NCBI GenBank assembly: GCA_965224495.1
Contig: CBDCZI010000025.1
Location: 243,495 to 307,494, forward strand
Length of the DNA: 64,000 nt
From: Cytophagales bacterium
GTDB taxonomy: Bacteria; Bacteroidota; Bacteroidia; Cytophagales; JAAEPT01
Direction: 5' to 3'
Part shown: positions 5,379 through 37,826 of the stretch, in pieces
Numbering within the stretch: the first letter of the stretch is position 1
Layout of the letters: each line of letters opens with the position of its first letter
The notes under the pieces: model-generated
Told to the model about the DNA's origin: nothing
The model's database searches: none
What the model saw: the letters and a program-made list of their open reading frames with translations, nothing else
Position numbers and translations under genes: made by a program

Positions 5379-5582
5379 TTAAAACAACTCGGTTTGTTCG
5401 CGTTGAATATCGAGGTCTTTGTCTCTGATTACGCCTTTTGTCATATTAAGTACCAAATCGGGAATAGACATACCTAACTTTTTAGCCACAGCTTTAATCA
5501 AATCTTTTTCAGATTCTGAAATTTGGAGAACTAACCGTTGAGTTCTTCCGCCACGTACTTTTTTTGGTCTTCCTGCGCTCAT
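5379..5582 (-). CDS. Small ribbon-helix-helix (CopG/MetJ-like) DNA-binding protein
   Basis: 67 aa. Basic N-terminus (GRPKKVRGGRTQR), then a beta-strand/helix/helix pattern (LVLQISESEKDLIKAVAKKLGMSIPDLVLNM) typical of RHH proteins. Confidence 0.5.
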   Translation of the reverse strand: MSAGRPKKVRGGRTQRLVLQISESEKDLIKAVAKKLGMSIPDLVLNMTKGVIRDKDLDIQREQTELF

Positions 5583-5949: not shown

Positions 5950-8712
5950 ATGGACAAATATTCTTACATAGCTAATGCTCACGGTAATTATATCGAGGAG
6001 TTATATGCAGATTATCAGAAAGACCCAAGCGCTGTTGACGAGAGTTGGCAAAAGTTTTTTGAAGGATTTGAATTTCAAGAAACGCAGTTTGGAGGAAATG
6101 GAGCTACGTCTTCGCCTGTTTCGGCGAACGATAAAGAAGTGAGCGTTTACCGTTTGATTCGTGCGTACCGTTCTAGAGGGCATTTGCGTTCGACGACAAA
6201 CCCTGTTCGCCAGAGAAAAGACCGTAACCCAGGGTTAGACTTGGAGGATTATAACTTGACTTCGGCAGATTTAGATTCGGTTTTTAATGTAGGAACTGAA
6301 ATTGGAATTGGTGCGGCGACGTTGAGAGATATTATTGCTGGATTGAAAAAAATCTACGAGGGGAATATCGGGTTTGAGTACATGTATATCAGACACCGTG
6401 ACCGTCAGGAGTGGTTTCGTCAACGTATTGAGAAAAAATCGTTGAACTACAAGCCAAAGCCTGATAATGTCAAAAGAATATTATCAAAATTGAATGAGGC
6501 AGTTGTTTTTGAAAACTTCTTGCACACAAAATATATTGGACAAAAACGTTTTTCTCTTGAGGGAGGGGAAACGACTATTCCTGCTTTAGATGCCTTGATT
6601 CAAAAAGGAGCTGAAGTTGGTGTAGAAGAATTTGTTATTGGAATGGCACACCGTGGTCGTTTAAATATTCTTTGTAATATCATGGGTAAAACCTATGAGC
6701 AAATATTTAACGAATTTGAAGGTGCTGCACCAGACTCTACAATGGGAGATGGTGATGTGAAATACCACATGGGCTTTTCATCAGTTCAAAAAACAACTTC
6801 TGGAAAAGAAGTGATGCTGAAATTGATGCCCAACCCTTCGCACCTTGAAGCGGTAAACCCTGTGGTTGAAGGTTACGCTCGTTCTAAAATAGAGCGTTTG
6901 TATAACAATGACGCAACCAAAGTTTGTCCGATATTAATACACGGTGATGCAGCAGTTGCTGGTCAAGGTATTGTTTATGAGGTGACTCAAATGCAGAAAT
7001 TATCGGGTTACAAAACAGGTGGTACGATTCACTTTGTTATTAACAACCAGGTTGGTTTCACGACTGATTTTGAAGATGCTCGTTCTTCTATTTACTGTAC
7101 AGATGTTGCAAAAGTAATTGACGCACCAGTTTTTCACGTGAATGGAGATGATCCAGAAGCGGTTGTTTTCTGTATGAAATTGGCGATGGAATACCGTCAG
7201 AAATTTGAGCGTGATGTCTTTATCGATATGGTTTGTTACCGTCGTCATGGACACAATGAAGCTGATGAACCAAAGTTTACTCAGCCTACTTTATATAACG
7301 TTATTTCTAAACACAGTAACCCTCGTGAGATTTACAGTAAAATGTTGATTGACCGTGGAGATATTCAAGCTGACTTGGCAAAGCAAATGGACAAAGAGTT
7401 CCGTGCATTGTTACAAGACCGCTTGAATATGGTGAAACAGAAAACCTTAGCTTATAAGTTTCAAGACACTGAAAAAGAGTGGAAAACTTTAACTAAAGCT
7501 GTCCCTGCTGATTTTGAAAATTCTCCTGACACGTCTATTCCTAAATCGGCTATTGACAAAGTAGGCAAAGCATTAACTACTTTGCCTGATGGTTTTAAAC
7601 CAATTAAGCAAATTGACAGGTTATTCAAAACAAGGAGAACACAATTTGAAGACACACGTGTCTTTGATTGGGCAGCTGCCGAGTTAATGGCTTATGGTTC
7701 TTTAATGTTGGAAGGACACAAAGTACGTTTGTCTGGTCAAGATGTACAACGTGGTACATTCTCTCATCGTCACGCAGTGATAAAAGATGCAGAAACTAAC
7801 CAAGGTTACAATAGTTTAAATGCCTTAGAGACAGAAATTAAATTTGATGTTTTTAACTCCTTCTTATCAGAATACGGAGTATTAGGTTTTGAATACGGGT
7901 ATGCAATGGCTGACCCTAATGTATTGACTATTTGGGAAGCTCAATTTGGAGATTTTGCCAATGGTGCACAAACGATGATTGACCAATTTATTGCTTCTGG
8001 CGAAACAAAATGGAGAAGAATGAATGGTTTGGTGATGCAATTGCCTCACGGTCAAGAAGGACAAGGGCCTGAACATTCGTCTGCTCGTTTAGAGCGTTTC
8101 TTGAAAGGTTGTGCTGATTACAATAATGTAGTGATTAACCCTACAACACCTGCCAATCAATTTCACGCATTGAGAAGACAATTGAAATGGAACTTTAGAA
8201 AGCCATTGATTATTATGTCTCCAAAATCATTGTTACGTCACCCAGCAGTGGTTTCTCCTGAAGTAGATTTTACAAAAGGAAAATTCCAAGAGGTTATTGA
8301 TGATGCTACAGTAAAAGCGAAAGACGTAAAACGTATCCTTTTCTGTTCTGGAAAAGTGTATTACGATTTGGCTGAAGAGCAAGCAAAAGGAAAACGTAAA
8401 GATGTTGCTATTGTTCGTTTAGAGCAGTTGTATCCTTTCCCATATACTAAAATTGATGAAGTATTAGAAAAATACTCAAATCATACAGAAATTGCTTGGG
8501 TACAAGATGAGCCTTATAACGCTGGTGCTTGGGGATTCATTTTAAGAGCACTTTACGATCATCATATTAATGTAATGGATGTGAAAGTGATTGCAAGAGA
8601 CGAATCATCTTCTCCTGCGGTTGGTTACATGAAAACTTTCAAGGCAATTCAACAAGAATTGGTAGAAGAAGCTTTTGGTAAATTCGAAAAGAAAAAAAGA
8701 GTAAAAAAATAA
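5950..8712 (+). CDS. sucA: 2-oxoglutarate dehydrogenase E1 component
   Basis: 920 aa. ThDP-binding region (GDAAVAGQGIVYE...NNQVGFTT), the HRHGHNEADEP motif, and the transketolase-like C-terminal half. Confidence 0.95.
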   Translation: MDKYSYIANAHGNYIEELYADYQKDPSAVDESWQKFFEGFEFQETQFGGNGATSSPVSANDKEVSVYRLIRAYRSRGHLRSTTNPVRQRKDRNPGLDLEDYNLTSADLDSVFNVGTEIGIGAATLRDIIAGLKKIYEGNIGFEYMYIRHRDRQEWFRQRIEKKSLNYKPKPDNVKRILSKLNEAVVFENFLHTKYIGQKRFSLEGGETTIPALDALIQKGAEVGVEEFVIGMAHRGRLNILCNIMGKTYEQIFNEFEGAAPDSTMGDGDVKYHMGFSSVQKTTSGKEVMLKLMPNPSHLEAVNPVVEGYARSKIERLYNNDATKVCPILIHGDAAVAGQGIVYEVTQMQKLSGYKTGGTIHFVINNQVGFTTDFEDARSSIYCTDVAKVIDAPVFHVNGDDPEAVVFCMKLAMEYRQKFERDVFIDMVCYRRHGHNEADEPKFTQPTLYNVISKHSNPREIYSKMLIDRGDIQADLAKQMDKEFRALLQDRLNMVKQKTLAYKFQDTEKEWKTLTKAVPADFENSPDTSIPKSAIDKVGKALTTLPDGFKPIKQIDRLFKTRRTQFEDTRVFDWAAAELMAYGSLMLEGHKVRLSGQDVQRGTFSHRHAVIKDAETNQGYNSLNALETEIKFDVFNSFLSEYGVLGFEYGYAMADPNVLTIWEAQFGDFANGAQTMIDQFIASGETKWRRMNGLVMQLPHGQEGQGPEHSSARLERFLKGCADYNNVVINPTTPANQFHALRRQLKWNFRKPLIIMSPKSLLRHPAVVSPEVDFTKGKFQEVIDDATVKAKDVKRILFCSGKVYYDLAEEQAKGKRKDVAIVRLEQLYPFPYTKIDEVLEKYSNHTEIAWVQDEPYNAGAWGFILRALYDHHINVMDVKVIARDESSSPAVGYMKTFKAIQQELVEEAFGKFEKKKRVKK

Positions 8713-8754: not shown

Positions 8755-8778
8755 GTCCTCTGTGTTTGCACAGAGGAC
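8755..8778 (+). promoter_or_regulatory. Perfect 10-bp hairpin in the sucA-sucB spacer
   Basis: GTCCTCTGTG-TTTG-CACAGAGGAC with no following U-tract. Possibly an mRNA processing or stability element rather than a terminator. Confidence 0.4.
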
Positions 8779-8792
8779 TAAATACTAAAAAA

Positions 8793-10280
8793 ATGGCATT
8801 AGAAATGAAAATCCCTGCTGTCGGGGAATCGATAACAGAAGTAACTATCGCACAATGGATGAAAGCGGATGGTGATTTTGTTGAAATGGATGAAATTATT
8901 TGCGAGTTAGAGTCTGACAAAGCAACTTTCGAGTTGAATGCAGAAACTTCTGGTATTTTAAGAATTAAGGCTGCCGAAGGTGAAGATGTAGAAATCGGAG
9001 CAGTCGTTTGTGTAATTGAAGAAGGAGAAGGCGTTGCCTCAGCACCTACACCAGTAGCGTCATCTACAGAAGGACCAGCTGCAACAGGTCAAACAATTGA
9101 AATGATTGTCCCTACTGTGGGAGAATCAATTACGGAAGTAACCGTTTCTAACTGGACAAAATCAGATGGTGATTTTGTTGAAATGGACGAAATAATTTGT
9201 GAGTTAGAATCAGATAAAGCGACTTTTGAATTGAACGCAGAAGCTCAAGGTATTTTGAGAATTGTTGGTCAAGAAGGAGATGATTTAGAAATCGGAGCTG
9301 TGATCTGTAAAATTGAAGTGATGGAAGGAGCTGCACCAACAACTACAGCATCTGCTTCAGCACCTACAAGTGCACCAACTACAGGTTCTTCTCACGCTAC
9401 GGGTCACCCTTCTCCTGCTGCTGGGAAAATCTTAGCTGAAAAAGGTATCGCTGCATCAGCAGTTACTGGAACAGGTGTTGGAGGAAGAATTACTAAAGAA
9501 GATGCAATGTCAGCTAAAAAAACGGTTCCTGTTGCTTCTAAATCTTCTGCTCCTACAGCAGTTGCAGCTCCAGTTGGAGATAGAAATACTCGAAGAGAAA
9601 AGATGTCTAAGCTTCGTAAAACTATTGCCAAACGTTTGGTGACAGTAAAAAACGAAACAGCTATGTTGACTACTTTCAATGAAGTAGATATGCAACCTAT
9701 TATGGATTTGCGTAAGCAGTACAAAGATATGTTTAAGGAAAAAAATGAAGTGAACTTAGGTTTCATGTCATTCTTTACGAAAGCATCTGCTATTGCTCTT
9801 CAAGAATGGCCTGCTGTTAATGCGTTTATCGATGGAGAAGAAATAGTTTACAACGACTATGCTGACATTTCTATCGCTGTATCTGCACCAAAAGGGTTGG
9901 TAGTACCAGTAATCAGAAATGCTGAAAAATTGACTTTCGCAGGAATTGAAAAAGAAGTTGTTCGTTTGGCTCTTAAAGCTCGTGCAGGAAAACTTTCAAT
10001 CGCAGAAATGAACGGAGGTACTTTCACAATTACAAACGGAGGTATCTTTGGTTCTATGTTATCGACACCTATTATCAACGCTCCACAGTCAGCGATTTTA
10101 GGAATGCACAACATTGTTCAAAGACCAGTAGCAATTAACGGAAAAGTAGAAATCAGACCAATTATGTATTTGGCTCTTTCTTACGATCACCGTATCATCG
10201 ACGGAAAAGAATCTGTTTCTTTCTTAAAAAGAGTAAAGGAATTGTTAGAAGATCCTTCGAGAATGCTTCTTGAAATATAA
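8793..10280 (+). CDS. sucB: Dihydrolipoyllysine-residue succinyltransferase (E2o) with two tandem lipoyl domains
   Basis: Two lipoyl domains each carry the ELESDKA lipoyl-lysine motif. Ala/Pro/Thr linkers, a peripheral subunit-binding domain ([13 protein letters not shown]) and a catalytic domain with DHRIIDG follow. The track ORF starts upstream at a non-ATG codon; the ATG at 8793 gives MALEMKIP. Confidence 0.95.
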
Positions 10281-10290
10281 TTGAGATAAA

Positions 10291-10321
10291 AGTCGTGAGT
10301 CGTAAGTCGTGAGTCGTAAGT
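10291..10321. repeat. Left arm of 31-nt inverted repeat built from GTCGTRA heptamers
   Basis: AGTCGTGAGTCGTAAGTCGTGAGTCGTAAGT. Pairs with 10852-10882, with two G-U pairs and one mismatch when read as RNA. Confidence 0.85.
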
Positions 10322-10378
10322 TTAAGTTCTATTAAACTTGTCGATTAATGATTTACTTTTACGATGGTTAATTGAGTT

Positions 10379-10732
10379 ATGAATAATTACAAAGACCTTA
10401 AAGTATGGCAAAAATCTATTCGTTTAACTACTGAAGGTTACCGAATAGTGAAAAACATGCCTACCGAAGAGAAGTTTGGATTAATCTCACAAATTACCCG
10501 ATGTACTGTTTCAATTCCCTCTAATATAGCAGAAGGAAGCGGACGAAATTCACCAAAAGAGTTTAGACAATTTTTGGGAATAGCTATGGGGTCTTCATTT
10601 GAACTTGATACTCAATTATTGATAGCCAAAAATATTGGTTATTTAACAGAAGAAAGCTATAACTTATTGACTGCTGAATTAGTCGAAATTCAACGTATGT
10701 TGTCTGGCTTAAAGCGGTCACTAAATATTTAA
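10379..10732 (+). CDS. Four-helix-bundle protein (23S rRNA intervening-sequence protein / Avd-like family)
   Basis: 117 aa. The N-terminal YKDLKVWQKS and IPSNIAEGSGR motifs are characteristic of the PF05635-type family. Confidence 0.85.
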   Translation: MNNYKDLKVWQKSIRLTTEGYRIVKNMPTEEKFGLISQITRCTVSIPSNIAEGSGRNSPKEFRQFLGIAMGSSFELDTQLLIAKNIGYLTEESYNLLTAELVEIQRMLSGLKRSLNI

Positions 10733-10851
10733 TTTCACTGTGAGTAATTAGAAGTGTAAATAAATCTAATTACTCACAACGTTAAAAATGTTAGTCACAA
10801 ACAAGCAAGTTGTAATTATAGTACTCAATAAATTATATGAATTGGGTAACT

Positions 10852-10882
10852 ACTTACGACTTACTACTTACGACTTACGACT
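10852..10882. repeat. Right arm of 31-nt inverted repeat
   Basis: ACTTACGACTTACTACTTACGACTTACGACT. Ends 9 nt before the lpdA ATG. Confidence 0.85.
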
Positions 10883-10891
10883 AGATAAAAT

Positions 10892-12289
10892 ATGTACGAC
10901 GTAACAGTAATCGGATCGGGACCTGGAGGCTATGTAGCCGCTATTAGATGTGCCCAATTAGGATTTAAAACAGCAATCATCGAAAAGTATCCTGCTTTAG
11001 GAGGTACTTGTTTAAATGTAGGGTGTATTCCATCAAAAGCTTTGTTGGATTCATCAGAACACTTTCATAACGCAACACACACGTTTGAAGAACATGGGAT
11101 TAAAATCAACACACCAAAAGTTGATATTAAGAAAATGATCGGACGTAAAAACGGTGTTGTTGATCAAATGAACCAAGGAATTGCGTATTTGATGCAAAAG
11201 AATAAAATTGACGTCCTTGCGGGGGTTGGTTCTTTTATTGATAAAAACACCCTCAAAGTAACTGCACTTGATGGAAAAACACAAGAAGTAAAAACGAAGA
11301 AAACGATTATTGCAACAGGTTCTAAACCGATGTCGATTCCTTCTATTCCTATAGATAAAGATAGAATCATCACTTCTACAGAGGCATTGAACTTAAAAGA
11401 AGTACCTAAACACATGGTCGTAATTGGCGGTGGAGTAATTGGTTTGGAATTAGGTTCTGTTTATGCTCGTTTAGGAACAAAGATTACTGTCGTAGAATAT
11501 GCTGACGCTTTAATTCCTACAATGGACAAAATGTTAGGAAAAGAGATACAAAAAGTACTTAAAAAAGAAGGGTTTGTATTTAATTTCAAAACAAAAGTAA
11601 CAGGCGTAACTTCTGACGGTAAAAAGGTAACTGTAAAAGCAGAAGACGCAAAAGGGAAAGCAATTTCTATTGACGCAGATTACTGTTTAGTTTCTATCGG
11701 TCGTAAAGCTTACACCGCAGGATTGGGACTAGAAAATATTGGTCTAAAAACCAACGACAGAGGACAAGTGGACGTTAACGACCACTTAGAAACAGGCATC
11801 GAAGGTATCTATGCAATTGGTGATGTCGTAAAAGGTCCTATGCTTGCTCACAAAGCGGAGGAAGAAGGTGTTTTTGTTGCTGAAGCAATGGCAGGACAAA
11901 AACCACATATCAATTACAACTTAATCCCAGGTGTAGTTTATACATGGCCAGAAGTTGCAGCTGTTGGACAAACAGAAGAGCAATTGAAAGCAGCAGGTAT
12001 AGCTTATAAATCAGGGTCTTTTCCTTTCAAAGCATCAGGAAGAGCTGTCGCTTCGATGGATACTGACGGACAAGTAAAAGTATTGGCTGATAAGGTTACA
12101 GATGAAATTTTAGGTGTTCATATTATCGGTCCTCGTGCGGCAGATATGATTGGAGAGGCCGTGGTTGCCATGGAATTCAGAGCATCTGCAGAAGACATTA
12201 CACGTATGTCTCATGCCCATCCAACATTCACAGAAGCAATTAAAGAAGCATGTTTGGCTGCAACAGACAAACGCTCGATTAATTTCTAA
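10892..12289 (+). CDS. lpdA: Dihydrolipoyl dehydrogenase (E3)
   Basis: FAD motif GSGPGGY, redox-active disulfide CLNVGCIPSK, NAD motif GGGVIGLE, and the C-terminal HAHPTFTE active-site His-Glu. Confidence 0.95.
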   Translation: MYDVTVIGSGPGGYVAAIRCAQLGFKTAIIEKYPALGGTCLNVGCIPSKALLDSSEHFHNATHTFEEHGIKINTPKVDIKKMIGRKNGVVDQMNQGIAYLMQKNKIDVLAGVGSFIDKNTLKVTALDGKTQEVKTKKTIIATGSKPMSIPSIPIDKDRIITSTEALNLKEVPKHMVVIGGGVIGLELGSVYARLGTKITVVEYADALIPTMDKMLGKEIQKVLKKEGFVFNFKTKVTGVTSDGKKVTVKAEDAKGKAISIDADYCLVSIGRKAYTAGLGLENIGLKTNDRGQVDVNDHLETGIEGIYAIGDVVKGPMLAHKAEEEGVFVAEAMAGQKPHINYNLIPGVVYTWPEVAAVGQTEEQLKAAGIAYKSGSFPFKASGRAVASMDTDGQVKVLADKVTDEILGVHIIGPRAADMIGEAVVAMEFRASAEDITRMSHAHPTFTEAIKEACLAATDKRSINF

Positions 12290-12306
12290 GAGACTTAATA
12301 TTTAAT

Positions 12307-12347
12307 AAAAAAACCACTTTTGACAGTTTGTCGAAAGTGGTTTTTTT
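12307..12347 (+). terminator. Rho-independent (bidirectional) terminator after lpdA
   Basis: AAAAAAACCACTTT...AAAGTGGTTTTTTT stem with flanking A and T tracts. Confidence 0.8.
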
Positions 12348-12371
12348 ATGTTATTGAAATAAAAGCATAAA

Positions 12372-12400: not shown

Positions 12401-12475
12401 TGGGCCCTGTAGGATTCGAACCTACGACCCCTTGCTTGTAAGGCAAATGCTCTAAACCAACTGAGCTAAGGGCCC
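12401..12475 (-). tRNA. tRNA-Val (anticodon TAC)
   Basis: The reverse complement reads GGGCCCTTAGCTCAGTTGGTTTAGAGCATTTGCCTTACAAGCAAGGGGTCGTAGGTTCGAATCCTACAGGGCCCA. It has a 7-bp acceptor stem, a GTTCGAATC T-loop and anticodon loop CTTACAA. CCA is not encoded. Confidence 0.9.
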
Positions 12476-12651: not shown

Positions 12652-15600
12652 ATGAAAAAATTAATAAAAGGGCTACTCTATTTTTTAGGTGGAGTGATTG
12701 CCTTACTTCTTTTGGTGACAATATTAGTTCCTGTACTGTTTAAAGACAATATAAAGTTGGCTATTGATGAGCAGTTAAAAAAAGAAGTCAATGCAAACGT
12801 AGTTTATGACTGGGATAAATTTGGACTAACTATTTTTAAGGATTTCCCCAATATTTCTGTAAAAATAGAAGATGTCGGCGTGATTAATTACGCACCTTTC
12901 AAAGGGGATACTTTGGCGATGATAGAAGAATTTGGCGTTACTTTAGACCTCTTTTCGGTTATAGGTGGAGAGCAAATGAAAGTAAACCGTGTGTATTTTG
13001 AAAACCCTACAATTAAAATATTGACGAACAAAGAAGGGGTTGGGAATTATAAGATATTAAATAATACGGGCGAAGATAATGACAGTACAGCTACGAGTGA
13101 GCCTTTAAAGATAAAGTTAGACTATTGGGAAATCACTAACGGTCGGTGGGTGTATGATGACCAACGTACTTCTACAACTGTTGTGTTGAATGGACTCAAT
13201 CACTCAGGGAAAGGGGATATATCAGCCATCTATGATTTAGCTTTGAAAACCTCGGTGGACGACATGAGTGTTTTACTTAATGGAGATAGTTATTATGAAC
13301 ACAGTACATTTGACTCGGGTATTGTTATTAATATTGATTTGGCGAATAATAAATATACATTTAAAGAAAATACATTAAAACTGAATGATTTTGCTTTTGG
13401 CTTTGATGGTTTTGTCCTTAACCGTGAAGAGGAAACGGAGATGTACTTGACCTACAAGGCAAAAGAAACAACATTTAAAAATGTACTGTCGTTAGTTCCA
13501 GGTGTTTTTTTAGAAGGGTTTGAGGATATCGAAACAGCAGGGAAGTTAGGTTTTGGTGGTTATGTAAAAGGAGTCTTGTCTGATACACAAAAACCAGGAT
13601 TTTTATTGAACTTATCGATCAAAGATGCCATGTTCAAATACCCTAATTTACCAACAGCAATCAATAATATTCAATTGGATTTGAAGGTGGACAATGAAGA
13701 TGCTAATATGGATGTAATCGCTGTTGAGTTGAAGAAACTACACATGGATTTAGGTTCTAACCCTGTAGATCTGAATTTGGTGATGGACGTATTGAAATCG
13801 GAAGATTTTGATATTAAAGATGCAAACTTAAAAGCTGATGTGAAGTTGAGCGAAGTCACTTCTTTTTATCCAATCAAAGATATTAATATGAAAGGGTTGT
13901 TGGCGATAGATTTACATGCAAAGGGAGTTTATAGCGGTAATAAAGAGTTGTTGCCTACTGTTTTTGGTGATTTGAAACTGACAAAGGGTTGGGTGAAATC
14001 GACAAAATACAAAGTGACGGCAGAAAACATACTGTGTGATGCTTGGGTTAATTACACACAGAAGTCTTCGCCGACAGATACTATTTTAAAAGTTAAACAT
14101 TTGGGTGCGTCGATTGATGGAGAGCGTTTTCAATCAAAATTAGCTATTTGGAACCGTGATGATATTTCGTGGGATGTAGCGATTAAAGGTCTGGTGGATT
14201 TGGATAAGGTGATGAAACTTGCACCTATCGAAGGAACTACATTAAAAGGAAAAATAAAAGTGGACAACCTACGGTCAAGAGGACGTATGAGTGATTTGGA
14301 TGCAGGGAATTATACGGCATTGAAAACGTATGGGAAAGCGACAATTACTAATTTTGAGTACGTCGAAAAAGAAGTTTTACCACAAGGGGTGAAAATCACA
14401 CAGTCTCGATTTGAAATTAATCCAAAAACGATTGATTTAAAATCATTTAATGGTTTCTTAGGAAAGAGTGATATGAGATTGAATGGTCAGCTTTCGAATT
14501 ACATGGCTTATGTCAATGATGTTATCAAAGGAAGAACAACAGCTAAAGGGGTGTTGAAAGGTAACTTGACTTATTATTCTAAACTGTTTCATACCGACGA
14601 ATGGATGTCAGAGGAAGAAACGGCGGAAGGAAGTACAACAACCAAAGGAAGCTTTGAAGACAACGCGATTCCTAAAAATATCCACTTTGTAATGGATGCT
14701 AAAATAGATAAAATCCTTTACGAGAATGCTGATATGACAGACGCTTCGGGAAAATTAGTTATCAAAAATGGTATTGTCGATATGAAGAACTTGAAAATGG
14801 TTATTTTAGGAGGGAACTTTGTGTTAAATGGACAATACAATACGTCTGTGCCAACAAAACCAACTTTCGATTTCACCATGGACATTGATAAACTGTCTTT
14901 TCAAGATTCTTACAATGCGTTTAGTACAGTAAGAAGTATCGCTCCGATAGCAAAAAATATTGAGGGTGATTTTTCTACAAAATTAAAAGTAAGTGGACCT
15001 ATTGGTCTTGATTTATTACCCGTTTTAGGTCAGATTAATGGTTTAGGCGATTTCTTTGTTGAGAACGCAAAAGTACAAGGCTTTGGCTTACTTAGTCGAG
15101 TAGCACAAGTAACTAATTTTTCTAATATAGGAGGGAGTAAGGCTGAATCAAACAACCTGACCCTACAAAATGCTTTGTTAACTGCAAAAATAGAAGACGG
15201 TAAAGTGATTTTCAAACCATTTACCTCTACCTCAGGGAAATCAAATATAACTATCGGAGGAAGTAGAAGTTTAGATGGTATACTTGATTTGGATATGTCA
15301 TTTGATATGCCAATGGGAGCTATCGGTAACTCTGCAAAAAATGTATTAGCAGGTTTTGGGTTAAATGATGTTGTAGGAGATAGAGTCACTGTACCCCTGA
15401 AAATTACAGGAAGTGAGAACAAACCCAAAATAGAAATCCTAGGAGCAAAATCGACAGGAGGACAAACAACAATCAAAGATGCCGTAGTCACAAAAGCAAA
15501 AGACGAGGCAAAAGTAGAAATAGACAAAGTAAAAGAAGCTGAAAAGGCTAAAATATTAGCCGAAGCACAAAAACAGGGCGATAAGCTAAGAATGGAATCA

Positions 15601-17016: not shown

Positions 17017-17179
17017 TTGGAGCATCCCCTCTGTGATGAAATGATTTTTCGGTGTAGGTTAGTAAAAGAAGCGATAGAAATGAAAATAACCGATAAAAAT
17101 AACGGAGGGTCGGGCTTACGGCTATATCTTTTTAGGGCAGAAAAAGCCCTAAAAAGGATACCGCCTTTATCCCTATGCC
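17017..17179 (+). repeat. Dispersed structured intergenic element, copy A (candidate ncRNA or MITE-like repeat)
   Basis: Shares blocks TTGGAGCATCCCC / GGGTCGGGCTT / ATCTTT..AAAGGAT hairpin / ATCCCTATGCC with copies at 25131-25368(-), 37655-37826(-), 45648-45803(+) and 52881-53041(+). Confidence 0.8.
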
Positions 17180-17371
17180 AAAAGAATACAGTGTGCATTG
17201 TGTTGAGTGCCTAATTTTGTTTGTCGTCTAAGTGTTTCGTGCTATCCAAAACGAGCGAGGGCGATAGTCGAATCCAATAAACAGAACATATTACCCTACC
17301 AAATTCTTTTCTTTTGACTAATAGCACAAAAAAGATACGTCTAAACCATCTATAATAGAAATCCCACGAAC

Positions 17372-37557: not shown

Positions 37558-37654
37558 GATATACGAACTCTAGTATATTACCCTCGTTGTAAACGAGTGC
37601 TAGAAGGTTTACACACAGACGATAGAAAGTCAATTAAGAACTAATAAACGCGTG

Positions 37655-37826
37655 AGGGATAGAGACGGCATCCTTTTTGGGCTTTTTCTGCCCGAAAAGA
37701 TACAGTCGAAAGCCCGACCCGAGGGGTGCTATGAAATAGTGTTTTTATGGTGCTGAACTCTTTGCTATGAAAAGCAGTAAAACAAAACAAAAGAGGGGTA
37801 CGTCCAAATCTACACGTTATTTAAAA
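37655..37826 (-). repeat. Dispersed structured element, copy D (divergent)
   Basis: The minus-sense sequence reads TTTGGACGTACCCCTC...GGGTCGGGCTTTCGAC..ATCTTTTCGGGC-AGAAAAA-GCCCAAAAAGGAT..CTCTATCCCTCACGC. The long-range helix is not preserved. Confidence 0.6.

Follow-up and report, generated by a model that had tools for sequence, protein, structure and literature searches.

To our knowledge, intervening sequences (IVSs) have been seen for 35 years as an oddity of the 23S rRNA with no known role, and the conserved four-helix-bundle (4HB) protein that goes with them has no known function. Here we describe an element of IVS-type build that resides in a protein-coding operon. It occupies positions 10291-10882, between sucB and lpdA, of a 64,000-nt stretch of DNA from a Cytophagales bacterium (GCA_965224495.1, contig CBDCZI010000025.1, positions 243,495 to 307,494 of the forward strand; hereafter the window), and it carries a 4HB gene enclosed by two inverted arms built from 7-nt repeats. 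The reading we favor, with a probability of about 0.55, is that an IVS-family cassette sits in the operon mRNA, is looped out by a duplex between its arms, and is a substrate of RNase III.

The closest described elements are the 23S rRNA IVSs themselves. The helix-45 IVS of Coxiella burnetii contains an open reading frame (ORF) of the same family and has terminal inverted repeats that form a 28-bp stem, together with three to four tandem copies of the heptamer GACAGAT, whose number varies between strains (Warrier et al., PMC4990558). Its stem is cut in the middle in vitro by both Coxiella and Escherichia coli RNase III, and its ORF is reported to be decaying and is probably untranslated (PMC4990558). 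As a comparison standard, we used an unannotated 4HB homologue found by tblastn in plasmid records, on Azospirillum lipoferum 4B plasmid AZO_p2 (record 14392-14739; L173, L-numbers being locus labels). No annotated protein gene surrounds this homologue, which lies in the sense orientation inside a 23S rRNA gene (Rfam LSU_rRNA_bacteria, 2540 bits). With its 38-nt arms, made up of AGAGGAC/GGATGAC units, it is a bona fide IVS. Its flank, GUACCGAAGCUGCGG, places the insertion at helix 45 by reference to the E. coli 23S rRNA.

Intercistronic RNase III sites are known from the early and late transcripts of phage T7, and a near-perfect duplex of about 31 bp is a canonical substrate of the enzyme. In Bacillus subtilis, RNase III also cuts long-range intramolecular mRNA stems (bioRxiv 2023.03.12.532304). 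What these sites share with the element described here is an intercistronic duplex that, if cut, splits messages and could set different stabilities upstream and downstream. They are, however, local hairpins or sporadic long-range pairings, and not gene-carrying cassettes with repeat-built arms.

A cassette of intervening-sequence type between sucB and lpdA

The spacer between sucB and lpdA is 611 nt long and contains a single ORF, at 10379-10732 of the + strand, which encodes a protein of 117 aa. As the initial annotation of the window had proposed, this is a 4HB gene of the PF05635 family: the protein matches PF05635 (23S_rRNA_IVP) at 1.9e-40 (137.8 bits, cut-off 33.8) and TIGR02436 ("four helix bundle protein") at 7.6e-38 (129 bits, cut-off 24), and it carries the motif G..Q..R...S...N..E..R. 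Its relatives in the Protein Data Bank are 2gsc (2.8e-20) and 2rld, crystal entries with five chains each; a Xanthomonas protein of the family is a homopentamer (Lin 2006, cited in PMC4990558). Purifying selection acts on the protein encoded here, with a ratio of nonsynonymous (dN) to synonymous (dS) divergence of ~0.2 among orthologues (dN 0.049, dS 0.246 and ratio 0.20 for the pair L085 and L086; at most 0.21 for more distant pairs). PADLOC returned no defense-system match.

The same fold occurs in Avd, a protein of diversity-generating retroelements, which is homologous and likewise belongs to a pentameric family. Identity with Avd was nevertheless rejected, as the matches stay below both curated cut-offs (PF22296 bAvd, 5.9e-07, 30.4 bits versus 40; NF033474 Avd, 4.4e-06, 26.9 bits versus 80) and the immediate neighbors are sucA, sucB, and lpdA, with no adjacent reverse transcriptase or template/variable repeat; the absence of a reverse transcriptase refers to these immediate neighbors only, the rest of the window not having been searched.

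The 4HB gene is bracketed by two period-7 arrays, which were delimited by direct reading, a repeat search and Tandem Repeats Finder (TRF). The 5′ arm at 10291-10321 (+ strand, AGTCGTGAGTCGTAAGTCGTGAGTCGTAAGT) is an AG-type array of 4.4 AGTCGTG/AGTCGTA units, which agree with the unit A-G-W-M-n-Y-D found across the gene family, and the 3′ arm at 10852-10882 (+ strand, ACTTACGACTTACTACTTACGACTTACGACT) is a CT-type array of ACTTACG/ACTTACT units; TRF counts 4.4-4.6 copies in the two arrays and extends the 3′ array to 10849. The arms can pair over 31 positions, with 28 Watson-Crick pairs, two G-U pairs (10297:10876 and 10311:10862) and a single C.U mismatch (10308:10865), exactly as first described. 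Their placement also agrees with that description, in which the cassette fills the spacer: 10 unpaired nucleotides separate the sucB stop codon (10278-10280) from the 5′ arm, and nine separate the 3′ arm from the lpdA ATG at 10892. The arrays are peculiar to this site within the window, where the pattern AGTCGTRAGTCGTR occurs six times, always in the two arms, against 0.02 occurrences expected, and where a pattern search and TRF found no other heptamer arrays of the arm type. The 64 kb likewise hold no second PF05635 ORF and no rRNA detectable with Rfam, and neither the arms nor the cassette matched an Rfam family. Because the whole 611-nt spacer is identical in three other public assemblies, the cassette is no assembly artifact.

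Folding predictions favor pairing of the arms. The arm duplex has an energy of −47.4 kcal/mol and a mean pairing probability of 0.95, which is unchanged when 300 nt of each neighboring gene are added, and the minimum free energy (MFE) fold of the spacer closes the arm stem (z = −6.9). A stem score was also computed for the best pairing between the two 200-nt flanks of the gene, with windows shifted by 1.2-2 kb as controls; the score of 66 obtained here compares with a maximum of 38 among 294 shifted control windows. The duplex probably forms in the operon RNA.

Between 5′ arm and start codon lies a 57-nt leader (10322-10378, + strand), longer than the 2-50 nt found in most relatives. A second, perfect hairpin of 14 bp with a 12-nt loop (TGTGAGTAATTAGA / TCTAATTACTCACA; 10739-10778, + strand) is located inside the cassette, between the 4HB stop codon and the 3′ arm, and has no T-run after it. 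This hairpin is absent from L084-86, the closest orthologous cassettes, in which that place spans only 25-45 nt.

The comparison with rRNA elements bears out the IVS-like architecture that had been claimed for the cassette. The window element shares with the IVSs of Coxiella burnetii (helix 45), Leptospira, Brucella, and Azospirillum (L173) an ORF of the PF05635/TIGR02436 family, tandem heptamer arms with an AG core, an ORF in sense to the host transcript, and an element size of 430-600 nt; its 31-bp stem compares with 28 bp in Coxiella and 38-nt arms of the same heptamer type in L173. In the register used for the cassette units, the Coxiella heptamer GACAGAT reads AGATGAC. As both the gene family and the arm architecture are shared, the likeness is more than an analogy. 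The differences lie in the host, which is the sucB-lpdA operon mRNA and not the 23S rRNA (helix 9, 25, or 45); in the protein, for which we see purifying selection here and decay of the ORF is reported in Coxiella (PMC4990558); and in RNase III excision, which has been demonstrated for rRNA elements and is only inferred for the window cassette. The element is thus IVS-type in build, but it is not an rRNA IVS, since it fails the criterion that gives the class its name, residence in 23S rRNA. That it belongs to a family of IVS-type cassettes is very probable.

The host operon begins with sucA (2-oxoglutarate dehydrogenase E1; 5950-8712, + strand; Pfam E1_dh, Transket_pyr, OxoGdeHyase_C, and 2-oxogl_dehyd_N), followed by sucB (E2 succinyltransferase with two lipoyl domains; 8766-10280, + strand; Pfam 2-oxoacid_dh, Biotin_lipoyl twice, and E3_binding), the cassette, and, as the last gene, lpdA (dihydrolipoyl dehydrogenase, E3; 10892-12289, + strand; Pfam Pyr_redox_2 and Pyr_redox_dim). 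A terminator scan found no terminator-like site between sucB and lpdA (10280-10892). The only such + strand site after sucB is a strong one, a 20-bp hairpin with a T-run directly after lpdA (12306-12348), which marks the end of the transcription unit. Past lpdA, the minus strand carries a convergent terminator-like hairpin (12399-12372) and a tRNA gene (12401-12475). Elsewhere in the window, Flavo-1 RNA (RF01705) scores above its gathering threshold at 17104-17183 (− strand) and 37642-37723 (+ strand); it is also present in two loci with 4HB cassettes (L048 4706-4783 and L061 4044-4149). A 67-aa ORF upstream of sucA (MSAGRPKKVRGG...SESEKDLIKAVAKKLGMSIPDLV; 5379-5582, − strand) encodes a candidate MobC or ribbon-helix-helix mobilization protein.

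Heptamer arms across the gene family

To place the window cassette in its family, we examined roughly 170 related loci overall. A scan of one genome per species yielded 80 loci with relatives, from Bacteroidota, Balneolaceae, Ignavibacteria, and Chlorobiota, 76 of which could be scored. The median stem score of these 76 loci was 37.5, compared with 23 in the shifted controls; 76% of them exceeded the 95th percentile of the controls and 64% exceeded the 99th. The paralogous cassettes, for which arms had been named as a point to check, mostly have them: about three quarters of roughly 90 homologues carry AG-type heptamer arrays upstream and CT-type arrays downstream (unit A-G-W-M-n-Y-D). The period is visible in the autocorrelation, which at lag 7 is 0.40 upstream and 0.43 downstream versus 0.26 in controls, and which persists at lag 14 (0.37 and 0.39) and lag 21 (0.36), with control values of 0.26-0.30.

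The unit sequences vary by locus (AGTATCA, GAGTACT, AGACACA, TGTACAA, AGATTTG, and others), and a single logo, A(.77) G(.95) T/A A/C n T/C not-C, fits all of them, in the 5′ arm and in the reverse-complemented 3′ arm alike. Within it, the core AG(W) is near-invariant and positions 5-7 drift. Arm complementarity is locus-specific: pairing is better within a cassette than between the 5′ arm of one and the 3′ arm of another (median 30 versus 17), and 60% of the cassettes lie above the 95th percentile. Furthermore, in 13 of 35 cassettes the mirror order of the units matters, as less than 5% of re-optimized unit-order shuffles reach the observed score. The number of in-phase AG units per arm has a mode of five and ranges from two to 15 or more.

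Several observations weigh against a reading of the arms as an RNA duplex kept for its pairing. Mismatched positions in the stems are G:U in 32 cases and A:C in 36, and without an excess of G:U over A:C there is no direct sign of selection for pairing in the sense-strand RNA. The arms of L084 are only ~70% complementary, and its MFE fold leaves the long stem unclosed. In the window, the units are so alike that their mirror order carries no information in the unit-order shuffle. The 7-nt period, the near-invariant AG core and the fixed polarity, with AG units 5′ and CT units 3′, are unexplained by pairing alone; the polarity is no strand marker, since an inverted repeat reads AG-type 5′ and CT-type 3′ on both strands. 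Finally, solo CT arrays found in some sucB-lpdA spacers keep their TACT core without a pairing partner.

In a second explanation, the heptamers would be binding sites for the 4HB pentamer, ribosomal protein S1 or another RNA- or single-stranded-DNA-binding protein, and the complementarity of the arms would be secondary, for instance as an on/off switch, with the CT array masked by the AG array. The near-invariance of AG(W) beside drifting positions 5-7, the recurrence of one unit type across phyla and in rRNA IVSs, and the absence of a G:U bias in the stems would all fit such sites, as would the conservation of solo (nnnTACT)x4 arrays upstream of the lpdA ATG in a clade that has neither the gene nor the 5′ arm (L091, L097, L105, and L145). 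Tandem heptamers of sequence TAACTGA, which in Beggiatoaceae, cyanobacteria, and a few Bacteroidetes stand shortly before start codons, offer a precedent; they were suggested to be bound by S1, Csp, or CsrA-type proteins (MacGregor 2015, PMC4679880). That paper contains no mention of S23p, four-helix-bundle, or intervening-sequence genes. The TAACTGA repeats resemble the cassette 3′ arm and the solo (nnnTACT)n arrays in being tandem 7-nt repeats that are G-poor on the sense strand and end a few nucleotides before a start codon; the window unit is, however, ACTTACG/ACTTACT and not TAACTGA, with which it shares only the ACT core, and unlike the TAACTGA repeats the window array has an inverted partner and encloses a gene. 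We regard protein-binding arrays as an unlikely primary explanation, because the locus-specific, mirror-ordered complementarity exceeds what arrays of a shared motif would give, the number of units differs greatly between arrays (2 to 15 or more), and the Coxiella IVS keeps its repeats even though its protein is apparently not made (PMC4990558).

A more specific proposal joins the protein to the arrays. The TRAP protein (trp RNA-binding attenuation protein) binds GAG repeats. The five chains of 2gsc and 2rld, the Xanthomonas homopentamer as it is cited, and the modal five in-phase AG units per arm suggest by analogy a TRAP-like ring that reads the heptamers: a pentamer might bind about five AG(W)nnnn units, one per subunit, and thereby control arm pairing. 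We consider this speculative and doubtful, and equally so its corollary that the 4HB gene and the arrays form one ribonucleoprotein module in Bacteroidota, cyanobacteria, and some Proteobacteria. If it were true, arm pairing would control the processing and translation of the flanking operon genes or, alternatively, the module would let the cassette spread at the RNA level, entering hairpin loops in strongly transcribed RNAs (rRNA helices and intercistronic spacers, for example); TAACTGA-type solo arrays before start codons would in that case represent orphan operators belonging to this system.

Long heptamer arrays also occur at a distance from 4HB genes, namely TGAGGTA x32 (L022 297-520), ATTAGAA/CTAGAGA x17 followed by CCAATAA x10 (L055 3784-4007), AGAATCA x9 (L072 4606-4666), and ATCCTAA x8 (L021 5303-5359). 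Cassette arms are thus not the only places in these genomes where heptamer arrays occur.

Operon junctions and the history of the sucB-lpdA site

Neighbors of the 4HB gene were assigned in the 80 genome loci with Pfam and tblastn. About 45 of them show the order fadB-type hydroxyacyl-CoA dehydrogenase, 4HB, thiolase, often a second 4HB, and acyl-CoA dehydrogenase; six, in addition to the window, have sucB-4HB-lpdA; and further genome contexts are carA-4HB-carB, metH-4HB-metF, and C-N hydrolase-4HB-preT. In all these junctions (fad, suc, car, met, and C-N hydrolase-preT) the cargo gene is co-oriented with the operon. It is antisense between paaC and paaD in L041, L042, and L064 (Chitinophagaceae and Balneolaceae) and between dnaJ and an ABC (ATP-binding cassette) transporter gene in L043, and in these loci the arms are kept. 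The retention of arms around antisense cargo fits a role for them in the host transcript. Orientation was fixed for each junction type in all relatives examined, always sense in fad, suc, car, and met and always antisense at paaC-paaD.

Cyanobacterial plasmids add further contexts: an antisense 4HB gene between nrdA and nrdB, where (AGTAGGG)n/(CCCTACT)n arms fill the spacers (L168); parA-4HB-parB with AGGGAAA arms; hlyD, antisense 4HB, and an ABC transporter gene; and cas6-4HB-cas4 with arrays of 10-15 AGCTAAA-type units (L169, Pseudanabaena galeata plasmid pPg_01). In this last locus (1286-1965), the 4HB start is immediately preceded by about 15 AAAGCTA units, and about 10 AAAGCCA units of like orientation lie downstream, with an inverted AGCnnTT array further upstream, an arrangement more complex than a simple arm pair. 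23S_rRNA_IVP genes have been noted inside cas loci before, and the association was read as functional; arms were not described (Zhang et al. 2013, PMC3936711). The genes are of the same family and similarly embedded between operon genes, but we see this embedding in many unrelated operons, which suggests a hitchhiking cassette. Counting helix 45 of the 23S rRNA, the element occupies that site and at least 12 different operon junctions.

Its position within these junctions is precise. Across the family, the distance from the upstream stop codon to the arm has a median of 0 nt (interquartile range (IQR) −1 to 11), and that from the arm to the downstream ATG a median of 9 nt (IQR 4 to 15), so that the 10 and 9 nt of the window are typical. 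The 5′ arm stands, in many loci, only 2-20 nt before the cargo ATG, too close for the gene to have its own promoter, so that transcription by read-through from the operon is implied.

This geometry also underlies a structural bypass without cleavage, a nonexclusive alternative in which the stem keeps lpdA translationally coupled to sucB across the insertion. On reaching the sucB stop, 10 nt ahead of the stem, a terminating ribosome would melt the base of the duplex and thereby expose the CT-rich leader together with the lpdA start, which lies 9 nt further on; if the upstream gene were not translated, the start region would stay sequestered. The proposal accounts for the family-wide medians, for the arms retained around antisense cargo, and for the nature of the host genes, which encode subunits or successive enzymes that need balanced synthesis (sucB-lpdA, carA-carB, fadB-thiolase, paaC-paaD, and nrdA-nrdB). 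It derives, however, purely from geometry; a 31-bp duplex of −47 kcal/mol would be expected to be cut by RNase III if formed, and lineages without the gene manage with spacers of 18-60 nt and no stem. We consider it somewhat unlikely.

The sucB-lpdA site itself has a traceable history. The closest homologues of the window protein, at 69-71% identity, are all found at this junction, and cassettes are present there in at least 13 other Cytophagales-type loci (L014, L017, L018, L020, L023, L049, L084-86, L089, L090, L093, and L099). The six genome loci with this arrangement belong to Cyclobacteriaceae, Fulvivirga, and Marivirga and share 64-69% identity in SucB and 69-74% in LpdA with the window. 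The arms of these relatives use other units, such as AGTAnnn, GGTACAA, and AGTAGTG. Cultivable bacteria with the cassette at this junction include Indibacter alkaliphilus LW1, Litoribacter populi, and Fulvivirga; Flavobacterium and Pedobacter have it between fadB and thiolase. Clustering of the 4HB proteins by site is weak, the nearest neighbor coming from the same site in 39 of 53 cases versus 33% by chance, because the sequences are saturated at 45-55% identity.

The initial annotation had called for a comparison of related spacers, and a metagenome scan with LpdA revealed full, gene-less, solo-array, and heptamer-less states. Full cassettes were found in L089, L090, L093, and L099, and gene-less hairpins of 111-162 nt in L096, L098, and L118; the latter consist of heptamers and are not ordinary terminators. 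Solo CT-type arrays, (nnnTACT)x4, occupy spacers of 39-42 nt and end a few nucleotides before the lpdA ATG in the four loci listed above. GC-rich terminator-like hairpins were found in L143, L144, L147, L152, L158, and L160, and in some lineages the spacer is very short and without heptamers. In a neighbor-joining tree of LpdA, the cassette is widespread and basal in one large clade, within which the hairpin, solo-array, and replaced states are nested; a separate clade is without heptamers. The simplest reading of these sequences is an old cassette that has repeatedly decayed, and the cassette of the window appears to be old and vertically inherited rather than recently inserted.

The gene-less hairpins are similar in position to the REP elements and BIMEs of enterobacteria (repetitive extragenic palindromes and bacterial interspersed mosaic elements), which are also repeated palindromes between operon cistrons. 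Those differ in sequence, lack both a 7-nt period and a cargo gene, and are associated with RAYTs (REP-associated tyrosine transposases), none of which was seen here. The fadB-thiolase and thiolase-acyl-CoA dehydrogenase spacers pass through the same range of states. In a Pedobacter fadB-thiolase spacer (L058 1237-1711), AG/CT arms surround a 360-nt loop with no ORF and no similarity to 4HB genes, and the 3′ arm ends 5 nt before the thiolase ATG. The heptamer-less spacers L013 4560-4640 and L022 thiolase-acyl-CoA dehydrogenase carry another palindromic repeat, CAATTGACAA / TTGTCAATTG.

Such a series raises the possibility that the arms are terminal inverted repeats left by a once-mobile element, with no present function, kept alike by slippage or template switching between inverted repeats and tolerated in noncoding spacer. 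Insertion at many unrelated sites (helix 45 and the operon junctions), presence and absence at orthologous sites, the decay from cassette to hairpin to solo array to nothing, and the fast turnover of arm units between the close relatives L085 and L086 are what it would predict; the lack of a G:U bias agrees with it, as do older proposals that IVSs are remnants of transposition, discussed in PMC4990558. The window does have a direct repeat resembling a target-site duplication, AGATAAA(A) (AGATAAAA), immediately outside both arms (10284-10291 and 10883-10890). As none of 33 other cassettes inspected has a flanking repeat of this kind, it is probably due to chance, and no consistent target-site duplication emerges. 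Nor is there a transposase in or next to the cassette or a near-identical copy, the 64 kb holding a single cassette, and nothing suggests recent transposition, since paralogues within a genome are only 21-46% identical; on these three grounds the element is not a demonstrable transposon. The idea that the cassette is a discrete insertable unit, raised at the outset, finds only historical support, in its many sites and its presence or absence at orthologous ones; target-site duplications and recent copies lend it none. Relic ends are in addition hard to reconcile with purifying selection on the gene (dN/dS ~0.2), with retention at the same junction across families, where neutral spacer would have decayed, and with arms placed precisely against stop and start codons, and we find this explanation quite unlikely.

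Finally, a segment bounded by inverted repeats could be an inverton, or its arms could form an ordinary terminator or attenuator between sucB and lpdA, such as the terminator-like hairpins that occupy the same spacer in the six loci named above. An inverton was rejected because the cargo has the same orientation in the window and the three other assemblies, four independent assemblies in all, and a fixed one at each junction type. An intrinsic terminator was rejected because the arms are ~530 nt apart, AT-rich, and without a following T-run, and thus form no short GC-rich hairpin with a U-tract, and the terminator scan was empty across the spacer. Either alternative is extremely improbable.

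Proposed loop-out of the cassette from the operon transcript

We infer co-transcription of the cassette with sucA, sucB, and lpdA, because no terminator lies between sucB and lpdA and because in many relatives the distance from arm to ATG leaves no room for a promoter. In the mechanism we propose, the cassette would be transcribed as part of the sucA-sucB-lpdA message, and its arms would pair into the 31-bp duplex within the polycistronic RNA, looping out the ~530-nt cargo. Pairing would bring the sucB stop and the lpdA start within ~20 unpaired nucleotides of each other, much like an ordinary short spacer, so that the insertion would be structurally neutral for the host transcript, as the IVS stem is in 23S rRNA. 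Loop-out would explain both the close fit of the arms to the neighboring cistrons and their retention around antisense cargo. A cut by RNase III would free the 4HB mRNA and split the sucAB message from that of lpdA. By analogy with the rRNA elements, such cleavage of the window stem in vivo is a real possibility, for which we would put the chances slightly short of even.

In the literature covered by our search, which included few papers from subscription journals, we found no prior description of operon-embedded 4HB cassettes with heptamer arms. The class appears to be undescribed and widespread in central-metabolism operons, with the window locus as one ordinary member.

Translation initiation in Bacteroidota is independent of Shine-Dalgarno pairing. 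The cassettes described here link three separate observations in the literature, namely the heptamers of the Coxiella IVS, the TAACTGA repeats before start codons, and the 23S_rRNA_IVP genes in cas loci. The same element as that known from 23S IVSs also resides in protein-coding operons, at precise and anciently conserved intercistronic positions, including those for 2-oxoglutarate dehydrogenase, beta-oxidation, carbamoyl-phosphate synthase, methionine synthase, phenylacetate oxygenase, and ribonucleotide reductase. The question can be put to a direct test in cultivable carriers such as Flavobacterium, Pedobacter, Indibacter, and Nostoc. Should the stems be cut or melted in the way proposed here, they would constitute a widespread post-transcriptional device that sets the relative expression of operon genes in Bacteroidota.

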